DNA of 64,000 nt from Nanobdellota archaeon (GTDB taxonomy: Archaea > Nanobdellota > Nanobdellia > Woesearchaeales > GW2011-AR4): contig JBBSWH010000005.1 in the NCBI GenBank assembly GCA_038046385.1, forward strand, positions 32,001 through 96,000, in the 5' to 3' direction. This document shows, in pieces, positions 36,558-58,844 of this stretch (the stretch's first letter is position 1; every line of letters begins with the position of its first letter). The notes beneath the pieces are model-generated. The model was not told where the DNA came from. It searched no databases and saw nothing but the letters and a program-made list of their open reading frames with translations. Position numbers and translations under genes: made by a program.

Positions 36558-36597
36558 TTTATATACCTCACACGCACAGATGTCCAGTGTCCAGTGG
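36558..36597 (-). promoter_or_regulatory. Tandem CACTGGACA motif plus TATA box
   Basis: Minus strand CCACTGGACACTGGACAT, 14 nt, TATATAAAC; same architecture as at both LAGLIDADG genes. Confidence 0.6.
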
Positions 36598-57040: not shown

Positions 57041-57793
57041 ATGGCGCTTTATTTCATAGGAATTGGACTTAACAACGAAAAAGACATCACTCTTAATGGC
57101 CTTGAAGCTGTTAAGAAATGCGATGTTGTTTATCTGGAGAACTATACTTCTGTTTTGAATGTTAAAAAGGAGAAGCTTGAAGAGTTGTATGGAAAGAAAA
57201 TAGTGTTGGCAAGAAGGACGCTTGTTGAAGCTGACAATAATGAGATAATTAAGAATGCTGCATCAAGGAATGTTGCTTTTTTGGTTGCAGGAGATTCTCT
57301 TTCTGCAACAACGCATATTGATTTATGGATGAGGGCGAAGAAAGAAAACGTGAAGTGTTTTATTATTCACAATGCTTCAATACTGACTGCAATCGGCGTT
57401 ACCGGTTTGCAGCTGTATAAGTTTGGGAAAACAACTTCAATTCCTTTGGCTAATGAGAATGTTGAAACGCCTTATGATGTTTTGAAAGGAAACTTAAGCC
57501 TTGGATTGCATACTTTGTTTTTGCTTGATCTTAATCCGGAAGAAAATCAGTTTATGGGTGTTGGAGATGCACTTCGGTATCTGCTCAAGATTGAATTAAA
57601 ACGGAATGAAAAGCTGATTTCTGAAAAAACAATCTGTGTTGGATGCGCAAGGGTAGGAAGCGAGACGCAATCGATAAAAGCCGGAATGGTGAAAGATGTG
57701 CTGAAGCATAATTTCGGAAAATCCGTGCAGTGTTTGATAATACCGGGAAAGATGCACTTCATGGAAGAAGAAGCGCTGCAGATGTGGAAATGA
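57041..57793 (+). CDS. dph5: Diphthine synthase
   Basis: LYFIGIGL, YLENYTS, SATTH, GLQLYKFGKT, GLHTL, IIPGKMHFME. Confidence 0.95.
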   Translation: MALYFIGIGLNNEKDITLNGLEAVKKCDVVYLENYTSVLNVKKEKLEELYGKKIVLARRTLVEADNNEIIKNAASRNVAFLVAGDSLSATTHIDLWMRAKKENVKCFIIHNASILTAIGVTGLQLYKFGKTTSIPLANENVETPYDVLKGNLSLGLHTLFLLDLNPEENQFMGVGDALRYLLKIELKRNEKLISEKTICVGCARVGSETQSIKAGMVKDVLKHNFGKSVQCLIIPGKMHFMEEEALQMWK

Positions 57794-57912
57794 CCACTGG
57801 ACATCCCTGCCTAAGATATTTAAACTAATTCTTCGTCTTAAACTGAAAAAGAGAACACGCAAAACTGCCAAATTAAGCCTTTTGATTACATCAAAATCCT
57901 TTTACGCAGTTT
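57794..57912 (+). promoter_or_regulatory. Conserved upstream region of LAGLIDADG gene 2 (CCACTGGACA, TATA box, structured leader)
   Basis: CCACTGGACAT at 57794, TATTTAAAC at 57817, 44-nt block 57866-57909 homologous to 23474-23517. Confidence 0.7.
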
Positions 57913-57980
57913 CGCTTAACATTCTCTTTTTCCTGAATTCCAAAGTTCCAAAAGGTTAGAAACTTTGGAGGTTGATTAAA

Positions 57981-58691
57981 ATGATACAGAAAACGAAAGA
58001 AGAGTATTTGAAAGAACATAAGAATTGGGGCAGTATTAAACTTATCAATTTTCCCGAAAAGAATGAAAGATTGGCAGAGCTTGTCGGCATAATTCTTGGT
58101 GATGGTAACCTACATGTTTATACAAAAGGTAGTAATGTGGGAACTTATTCTTTAAGAATAGCTGGAAATTACATAAAAGATCATGAATATCTTACAAATT
58201 ATGTGGCTAGTTTGTGCAAAGACTTGTTTATGGTTAAGCCTAGGACATACAAACAGCCAAATGTAAATTGCATTTATCTTATAATTGATGGTAGGCTAAT
58301 TATAGATTTTTTAATTGAGATTGGATTAAAAAGCGGCAACAAAATAAAAAGTCAAGTTACAATACCCGATTGGATTATGGAAAATAATGAATATCTTAAA
58401 TCATGCATAAGGGGATTGATAGATACCGATGGCTGCGTTTATGAAATGCTGCCTCATTGGCCAGGCTTGTTCCAGATTAATTTTGAGAACAGAAACATAA
58501 CTTTGTTGAGAGATACAAGAGAGGCTTTGATAAAGCTAGGCTATCACCCTTCTAAAATTTGTGGCAATAGAACGCAATTCGGAACTAAAATTTATATCTC
58601 TCGAAAGGAAGAAATCAAAAGATTTTATAAAGAGATTGGGTCTAGCAACGATAGGAATATAAAACAATTCACTAAAGTGTTTAACTCATAG
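57981..58691 (+). CDS. Free-standing double-motif LAGLIDADG endonuclease
   Basis: LAELVGIILGDG and CIRGLIDTDG motifs; SD GGAGG before ATG 57981. Confidence 0.88.
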   Translation: MIQKTKEEYLKEHKNWGSIKLINFPEKNERLAELVGIILGDGNLHVYTKGSNVGTYSLRIAGNYIKDHEYLTNYVASLCKDLFMVKPRTYKQPNVNCIYLIIDGRLIIDFLIEIGLKSGNKIKSQVTIPDWIMENNEYLKSCIRGLIDTDGCVYEMLPHWPGLFQINFENRNITLLRDTREALIKLGYHPSKICGNRTQFGTKIYISRKEEIKRFYKEIGSSNDRNIKQFTKVFNS

Positions 58692-58780
58692 CCCCGTAGT
58701 CTAGCGGTCACTTGAATAAAGCTGCAGAAGGATTCGGCCCTTTGGAGGCTGAGGCGGCAGTTCGAATCTGCCCGGGGCTA
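58690..58780 (+). tRNA. tRNA-Gln(TTG) with 18-nt D-loop intron (58710-58727)
   Basis: AGCCCCG/CGGGGCT acceptor, CGGCC-CTTTGGA-GGCTG anticodon arm, GGCAG-TTCGAAT-CTGCC; BHB-like GCGG/CTGC with bulges TCA and AGA. Confidence 0.88.
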
Positions 58781-58844
58781 TATTTTAATTTTCTCTTGAT
58801 TATGGGCAATACTTAGATATACCTTACCAATATTTCTCTAAACT

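Follow-up and report, generated by a model that had tools for sequence, protein, structure and literature searches.

Leader hairpins that sequester the ribosome-binding site (RBS) are described for the T-even phage genes I-TevI, I-TevII, I-TevIII and segB and for Aeh1 mobE in the part of PMC2988022 available to us. Here, we describe a predicted leader RNA upstream of two LAGLIDADG genes, A and B, in a 64,000-nucleotide stretch of a woesearchaeal genome (contig JBBSWH010000005.1, C5:32001–96000), which we call the window, and propose that it probably acts as a brake on translation. The genome itself, G000, is a 1.28-Mb assembly in 19 contigs and is 85% complete. Much as in the T-even phages, judging from the same part of that source, selfish endonucleases of different families come with a promoter of their own and with a Shine-Dalgarno sequence (SD) that is paired, here by prediction, within the RNA; as with segB, some of the genes lie among tRNA genes. 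The T-even systems reside in phages, whereas these belong to a cellular archaeon. The T-even hairpins are also individual and unrelated, whereas here we find one covarying family with about 160 matches and a conserved internal loop, set within two interchangeable architectures, one of them with a copy of the 16S rRNA 3′ tail.

LAGLIDADG motifs each end in a conserved acidic residue. Genes A and B resemble LAGLIDADG homing endonucleases in encoding two such motifs with their acidic residues, and in being present or absent beside conserved genes. Unlike the endonucleases of introns and inteins, they lie outside both, and the gene context of the two open reading frames (ORFs) agrees with the initial annotation of the window, which had placed neither inside a host gene. 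They also differ in that neither A, B nor a seven-sequence profile of B has a sequence match among solved structures, and cleavage is predicted only.

A covarying core within two leader architectures

The two copies in the window share one order of elements: a CCACTGGACAT box, 12 nt, TATTTAAAC, a spacer, a 44-nt block, AAAACUU(U)GG with the SD, and the ATG (Table 1). The initial annotation, made from the sequence alone, had described this layout upstream of both ORFs, and every element was found where it had been placed. Direct reading likewise agreed with its count of 38 identical positions of 44 between the two blocks. A 44-nt pattern with 7 free positions matched the window twice, at copies A and B, with 0 matches expected from 100 shuffles. 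The box is also in excess: CCACTGGACA with at most one mismatch occurs 8 times in the window against 1.62 expected, a count reached in 0/100 shuffles.

Table 1. Features of cassettes A and B, in window coordinates; helices and hairpins are predicted
Feature	Position	Strand	Remarks
CCACTGGACAT box, cassette A	57794–57804	+	Directly 3′ of the TGA stop of a dph5-like gene; left edge of the repeated module
TATA box TATTTAAAC, cassette A	57817–57825	+	12 nt past the box; preceded by a purine-rich stretch like a B recognition element (by eye)
Helix P1, type-1 leader	GAAAAAGAGAA 57845–57855 with UUCUCUUUUUC 57922–57932	+	Encloses the core
Core hairpin A	57859–57915	+	Outer stem, conserved internal loop (CAAAUUA / UUUAC), inner stem; R1 match 57850–57925, 91.9 bits
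44-nt block, copy A	57866–57909	+	
SD hairpin P3	UUCCAAAGUU 57938–57947 with AACUUUGGAG 57961–57970	+	Buries GGAG of the SD GGAGG
SD GGAGG, gene A	57967–57971	+	
ATG start, gene A	57981	+	
LAGLIDADG gene A	57981–58691	+	236 aa; motifs ILGDGN, LIDTDGC; Pfam LAGLIDADG_3 (PF14528) 39.4 bits, E 7.4e-10
tRNA-Gln(UUG)-like gene	58690–58780	+	18-nt insert in the D-loop; found by eye and by comparison with relatives
Two CCACTGGACA boxes, cassette B	23626–23617, 23611–23601 (second = CCACTGGACAT)	−	Directly 3′ of the TAG stop of a phosphoenolpyruvate (PEP)-synthase-type gene
TATA box TATTTAAAC, cassette B	23588–23580	−	12 nt past the second box
AAUCACC, 5′ arm of type-2 long-range helix	23541–23535	−	From the fold of leader B
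Core hairpin B	23533–23458	−	R1 match 73.7 bits; fold z −3.39
44-nt block, copy B	23517–23474	−	
SD GGTGAT (GGUGAUU, 23454–23448), gene B	23454–23449	−	Paired with 23541–23535
ATG start, gene B	23443	−	
LAGLIDADG gene B	23443–22439	−	334 aa; motifs YFAEGD, MIGEGT; Pfam LAGLIDADG_3 22.7 bits (cut-off 22.5)

The 66-nt cores of A and B share a predicted fold, with an outer stem, an internal loop, an AAG/CUU segment and a 7-bp inner stem. Folding energies are −15.1 and −15.2 kcal/mol, and the z score for A is −5.13. RNAalifold, when run on unguided MAFFT alignments, did not recover the inner stem of the core or the outer helices of the type-2 leaders described below; therefore, structures were set by hand and their pairs counted. 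In A2, a MAFFT alignment of seven cores with a handwritten structure of 19 pairs, 85.7% of cells were paired and 8/19 pairs had double changes, which 0/500 shuffles matched. We built the covariance model R1 from A2. In 37 cores aligned to R1, 89.8% of cells were paired, 14/19 pairs had double changes, and 0/500 shuffles reached these values, with 29–48% of cells paired in slid controls. An alignment fitted to the model favors its structure, but A2 is independent of it and gives the same picture.

Compensatory changes in the core include CUGC/GCAG to CUCC/GGAG and U-A to C-G, and both helices also carry double changes across 19 type-2 leaders. Between copies A and B, the pair closing the loop changes from C-G to U-A and the outer stem from GGUUGC/GCAGCC to AACUGC/GCAGUU, as the initial annotation had read them. 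It had also remarked on the conserved internal loop, and this holds widely: C-Y-AAAU-W-A opposite W-UUA-Y is nearly constant across the 37 copies. Covariation thus supports both core helices.

R1 finds nine copies in G000, the diverged ones having first been found by a motif search of the genome. It matches in 33/36 genomes of the same genus and in 4/24 other families of the order, giving about 160 matches together with the same-genus set. In a draw from the whole class, R1 matched in 1/150 further genomes, and that one belongs to the same order, as a fifth other family; about 130 class-level genomes outside the order had no match. Public genomes contain 44 stretches with a 21-mer of the leader. 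Nearly all are titled Woesearchaeota, Nanoarchaeota or Nanoarchaeia, in agreement with the DPANN scope that had been suggested for the element, and most come from groundwater. Some of these records are labelled ‘Methanosarcinales,’ a label that is unchecked. Two bacterial records sharing the 21-mer have no R1 match and were set aside as chance words, and viral contigs gave 0 exact matches to it. No known RNA family was matched: Rfam at gathering thresholds gave 0 matches in the whole window, and a permissive scan of 57780–58800 gave chance-level matches and a partial tRNA only. The core hairpin is one family, confined in the genomes sampled to one order of Woesearchaeota (DPANN).

We also compared the internal loop by eye with a kink-turn, a bulge-helix-bulge and a tetraloop-receptor, and set all three aside, as it shows neither G·A pairs nor a 4-bp helix flanked by 3-nt bulges. 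A kissing interaction between the internal or apical loop of the core and the loop of the SD hairpin was rejected as well, since complementarity across 26 type-1 leaders was no better than for shuffled loops except in one leader.

Around the core, the predicted leader RNA spans 90–160 nt and takes one of two architectures. In type-1 leaders, such as leader A, the long helix P1 surrounds the core and is followed by a separate hairpin whose 3′ arm, ACUUUGGAG, supplies the GGAG of the SD. The minimum free energy fold of leader A (57836–57983) has −35.7 kcal/mol and a z score of −4.85. Across 26 type-1 leaders, the SD hairpin has a 9-bp consensus helix with a folding term of −9.34 kcal/mol. Its 10 G·U cells and 0 A·C cells fit an RNA of the sense strand.

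In type-2 leaders, such as leader B, the core stands between AAUCACC on its 5′ side and the SD, GGUGAUU, on its 3′ side, and these two segments pair with each other. The fold of the whole leader B has a z score of −4.14 and places the SD in a helix. Leader B has 18 full-length type-2 relatives in the genus, and across 19 leaders 86.8% of the cells of the helix AAUCAC(C)/(G)GUGAUU are paired. The 5′ arm of most type-2 copies has the sequence AUCACCUC, the same as that of the 16S rRNA 3′ tail, which suggests that it mimics the anti-SD. The 16S 3′ end, absent from the G000 assembly, was read in a genome of the same genus (...GGATCACCTCCT). Based on these folds, the SD is predicted to be paired in both architectures.

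Two kinds of rearranged copies were seen in G000. In one (L008, G000:C7:3758–3882), a whole promoter module, GCACTGGACAT-N12-TATATAAA, lies within the apical loop of the core, leaving the 5′ arm upstream of the promoter, and the SD is still able to pair. In another (L007, G000:C9:17542–17661), as in L038, the 5′ arm of the core has a 44-nt insertion with a second copy downstream. Both copies of the insert contain a small palindrome, UCAAAAAUCUUUGAUUUUUGA, which recurs as the same mini-hairpin in a relative's leader, and the insert may be a miniature mobile element.

Genes behind the leader and their insertion sites

Proteins A and B are as little alike as the initial annotation had judged by eye, with 23% identity over 94 aa and a pairwise E value of 0.007. 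The LAGLIDADG fold of B is assigned from Pfam and its motifs; an orthologue scores 32.8 bits against LAGLIDADG_3, with E124 and E245 unchanged across 7 orthologues. Based on these sequence features, A and B are free-standing genes of the LAGLIDADG homing-endonuclease type, with predicted cleavage activity.

Each of the nine leader copies in G000 has a downstream ORF on its own strand. Six of these ORFs are of LAGLIDADG type (four above and two below the Pfam cut-off), and the other three are weakly PD-(D/E)XK-like, zinc-finger and helix-turn-helix (HTH)-only. In the relatives, we considered the best 29 of about 160 R1 matches and called ORFs by a simple rule: 27/29 have a CACTGGACA box at most 110 nt upstream, and 27/29 have a downstream ORF. 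Pfam matches among these 27 ORFs, which may overlap, were LAGLIDADG_3 in 16, LAGLIDADG_1 in 5, LAGLIDADG_2 in 3, HNH_repeat in 2 and MazE in 2; genes of HTH and MazE/AbrB type are thus among those that the leader precedes in relatives. The leader's association with selfish nucleases is therefore strong but not exclusive. The proposal of a family of endonuclease-like cassettes with a cis-acting structure stands insofar as the hairpin is RNA-like with compensatory changes, and the covariance model did return mainly LAGLIDADG genes; specificity for LAGLIDADG does not stand, as other gene classes are headed by the leader too.

Comparison with relatives shows that the cassettes are insertion polymorphisms; both loci are filled in some genomes and empty in others, bearing out the presence or absence at syntenic loci that had been suggested as a check. 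Cassette A lies between a TP_methylase-family (diphthine-synthase-like) gene, dph5, and a tRNA. This site is occupied in at least five genomes and empty in four relatives, where tRNA-Gln stands 46–190 nt from dph5 with its own TATA box. In G000 and one relative the cassette begins exactly at CCACTGGACAT, whereas others have further inserts. Orthologues of gene A (91% and 69% identity) occupy the site in two relatives, and two distant LAGLIDADG paralogues (32–35%) occupy it in other genomes. At the locus of gene B, behind the PEP-synthase-type gene, 29 relatives were compared: an orthologue of B (55–70% identity) is present in six and another cassette in two, and the rest are empty.

The leader of gene B varies at this one site. 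It is type-2 in G000 and G021, diverged type-2 in G005 and G006, and type-1 in G025, G017 and G016; one orthologue has the box fused to the leader, with no TATA box. Thus, promoter and leader form a swappable module. Contigs of four other public DNA runs diverge left of 57793 and at 57984, indicating that the repeated module extends from the box to the ATG, and none of these contigs joins across an empty site.

At its 3′ end, gene A runs into the neighboring tRNA: a TATA-like ATATAAAA is read through in its last codons, and the first 2 nt of the tRNA-Gln-like gene fall within its TAG. This tRNA-like gene has a partial match to the Rfam tRNA model (22.3 bits, below the gathering score), and ARAGORN reported no tRNA in the window. 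Copies of this tRNA-Gln in relatives have inserts elsewhere, after the anticodon and in the T-arm region. A tRNA neighbor, or a tRNA-like one, recurs at two more leader cassettes of G000. At C4:57183 (L005, C4:57183–57971 and downstream), a leader-bearing LAGLIDADG-like ORF is directly followed by a convergent pair of tRNA genes that score 55.8 and 58.7 bits in Rfam, the nearer one overlapping the last 19 nt of the ORF; at C9:17767 there is only a weak tRNA-like match. Separately, the open frames around PEP synthase and MCM are longer in several relatives (about 1200–1350 aa vs about 810, and about 1070–1230 aa vs about 675), which suggests inteins.

A promoter common to cassettes and host genes

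The exact box CACTGGACAT occurs 27 times in G000, with a TATA box 12 nt on in 23 cases and 14 nt on in 3 (26/27). Beyond the cassettes, this promoter precedes the single MCM gene and genes for a Hef-type helicase-nuclease, a tyrosine recombinase, a Cas4-like nuclease and an NgoPII restriction enzyme, as well as three Bro-N genes, a MazE/AbrB gene and small ORFs, one of them in the window. In a draw of other families of the order, box and TATA box stand before MCM in at least 4/28 loci, and in most others MCM lies directly behind another gene. The recurrence before MCM in several families indicates that the element serves as a host promoter and is more than the end of a cassette. The motif had been taken as part of the cassettes' own layout; CCACTGGACAT-N12-TATA instead turned out to be a general promoter type, found before MCM, Hef and an integrase.

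Two of these loci deserve separate mention. At 36597–36315 of the window (− strand), a third CCACTGGACA box (CTGGACAT) with TATATAAAC stands ahead of a 53-aa zinc-ribbon-like ORF (36476–36315), whose leader has a different hairpin, GGCAGGGAAAAAACCGC...GCGGUUUUCCUUGCC, with a z score of −3.7. The NgoPII-family restriction endonuclease (288.5 bits; G000:C18:12194–13118) on a CCACTGGACAT promoter has a methyltransferase-like frame directly 3′ of it.

The box invites comparison with the origin recognition box (ORB), whose consensus is CTTCCAGTGGAAACGAAAGGGGT (PMC4153887, Table 2, among the parts of that paper available to us). CCACTGGACAT shares 8 contiguous letters, CCACTGGA, with ORB variants such as GTTCCACTGGAAAC listed there. 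These are the letters it has in common with the dyad core TTCCAsTGGAA. The flanks differ: AA/TT is missing at the outside of the dyad, and so is the G-string found in full ORBs. ORBs cluster at the origin beside orc1/cdc6, whereas the boxes here are dispersed, at a fixed spacing before TATA boxes. More canonical ORB-like sites and an AT-rich stretch do occur upstream of the G000 orc1/cdc6 gene, which occupies C6:135882–137087. This stretch lies between the ORB-like GTTCCATAGGAAATCAAGGGGT and TTTCGTGTGGAAACG (L221, G000:C6:135335–135880) and is a probable replication origin. Within 10 kb of it are MCM, a TBP-like gene and six CCACTGGACAT promoters (C6:125.9–130.3 kb; Bro-N, MazE and small ORFs).

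In Sulfolobales, an Orc1/Cdc6 paralogue is a global transcription regulator, according to the part of PMC6061795 that was accessible. CCACTGGACAT might be a mini-ORB read by the single Orc1/Cdc6 of these archaea as a transcription factor. The cassettes would then be plugged into a replication and repair regulon, and the internal loop would be the receptor of a host factor that unlocks the ribosome site. We put this forward as a conjecture from sequence likeness that is unlikely to hold in full.

A putative translational brake and its rivals

We propose that a portable expression module, reaching from box to start codon, heads the free-standing genes of homing-endonuclease type. Its first part would be a promoter of the type that also precedes host DNA-transaction genes, from which, judging by the arrangement of box and TATA box, the leader would be transcribed. 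Its second part would be a 5′ leader RNA around the core hairpin, with the SD base-paired: in type-1 leaders it would be held in a local 9–10-bp hairpin, and in type-2 leaders it would pair across the core with the upstream copy of the 16S 3′ tail. The mRNA would be made while ribosome loading is held down, as with I-TevI, segB and mobE in T-even phages, and the host could tolerate a DNA-cutting enzyme. A lowering of translation by SD pairing is what the fold models imply, and with moderate confidence we regard the leader as a brake that keeps endonuclease production low. Among the three roles that the initial annotation had offered for the structure (translational control element, mobility end or associated RNA), the first fits best.

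Several observations weigh against this proposal. The helices that hold the SD are nearly invariant: the type-1 hairpin shows one compensatory pair in 26 leaders, and the type-2 long-range helix has one, with position 19:109 decaying to mismatches. Proof by covariation is therefore limited to the core and does not extend to the SD helices. In the core helices, 46 A·C mismatches stand against 14 G·U pairs, so wobble pairs lend the core no strand support. SD-dependent initiation may not be the rule in this organism, as an SD-like 5-mer lies upstream of 79/593 long ORFs of G000 vs 16/593 random controls, with crude start calls. In T4, an embedded late promoter bypasses the block, whereas leaders A and B contain no second CACTGGACAT/TATA module that could do so. 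The leader is also dispensable: a profile search of G000 found LAGLIDADG_3 in seven genes, all free-standing, three of which lack the core although the promoter is there; of a type-1 leader, one of the three retains only the first part. No RNA is among the 16 public runs listed with this DNA, and the leader RNA and its transcription start are predictions. Finally, occlusion of the SD alone leaves the conserved internal loop unaccounted for; the simplest addition is that the loop would serve as a docking site for a factor.

If the loop is given the leading part, the core becomes an operator RNA: a host or cassette protein would bind it and switch translation or decay, with SD pairing either secondary or a state controlled by that factor. 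This would suit the loop letters, which are conserved above all else in the element, in type-1 and type-2 leaders alike, with the surrounding helices varying by compensatory change, and the presence of the same core within two different outer architectures; many cassette proteins have HTH domains as well. Yet no known RNA motif was recognized (nothing in Rfam, and by eye no G·A pairs for a kink-turn), the cassette proteins are too diverse for one RNA-binding function, and no binding partner can be named from sequence. We consider an operator possible but doubtful. The leader could instead stabilize or process the mRNA, as a 5′-terminal helix that hinders a 5′-3′ exonuclease or as a cleavage signal, with no block to ribosomes. 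The predicted type-1 start, about 26 nt past the TATA center, falls at the 5′ arm of P1 and would leave the 5′ end paired, and RNase E processing is described for T4 seg and mobE transcripts as well (PMC2988022, the part available). Type-2 leaders, however, would have about 25 unpaired nt before the first helix, and it would go unexplained why the SD is the paired partner in both architectures, which are unrelated and of which one employs a 16S tail copy. We therefore find a stabilizing or processing role improbable.

A role of the hairpin at the DNA level is also conceivable, in which a cruciform or a hairpin of one strand would mark the recombination or mobility site of the cassette or module. 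Cassettes exchange the module, inserts begin on the left exactly at the CCACTGGACAT box, the copy on C7 has a promoter module inside the hairpin loop, and the excess of A·C over G·U in the core would fit DNA. Against this, the hairpin keeps a fixed orientation between promoter and start codon (9/9 in G000, 27/29 in relatives), no conserved element was seen by eye as a partner at the 3′ ends of 16 cassettes, and none of the copies has a transposase or integrase linked to it. At one and the same site, a cassette may have another leader or no recognizable core; gene B orthologues carry type-1, type-2 or degraded leaders there. Three LAGLIDADG cassettes of G000 are core-less. A role as mobility end thus appears very improbable, and we retain the translational brake as the preferred reading.

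We found no description of this leader family, module or promoter in the literature searched, in which coverage of subscription journals was thin. RBS-hiding control of homing endonucleases, known from T-even phages, would here occur in an archaeal chromosome, as one family common to nucleases of different folds. It offers a case in which the tolerance of ultra-small DPANN genomes for many selfish nucleases can be tested. To our knowledge, few cis-regulatory RNA families are known in archaea, and the leader would add a new one, absent from Rfam. The promoter of fixed geometry common to MCM and repair genes may make a regulon readable in Woesearchaeota for the first time, and its box may hint at a role of Orc1/Cdc6 in transcription beyond Sulfolobales. 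If the mini-ORB reading were true, with MCM, Hef, the Xer-type recombinase and the Cas4-like nuclease as members of the regulon, the making of nuclease mRNAs would be timed to the presence of a repair template, and homing in a cellular organism would be under two-key control, by an initiator protein and an RNA lock.

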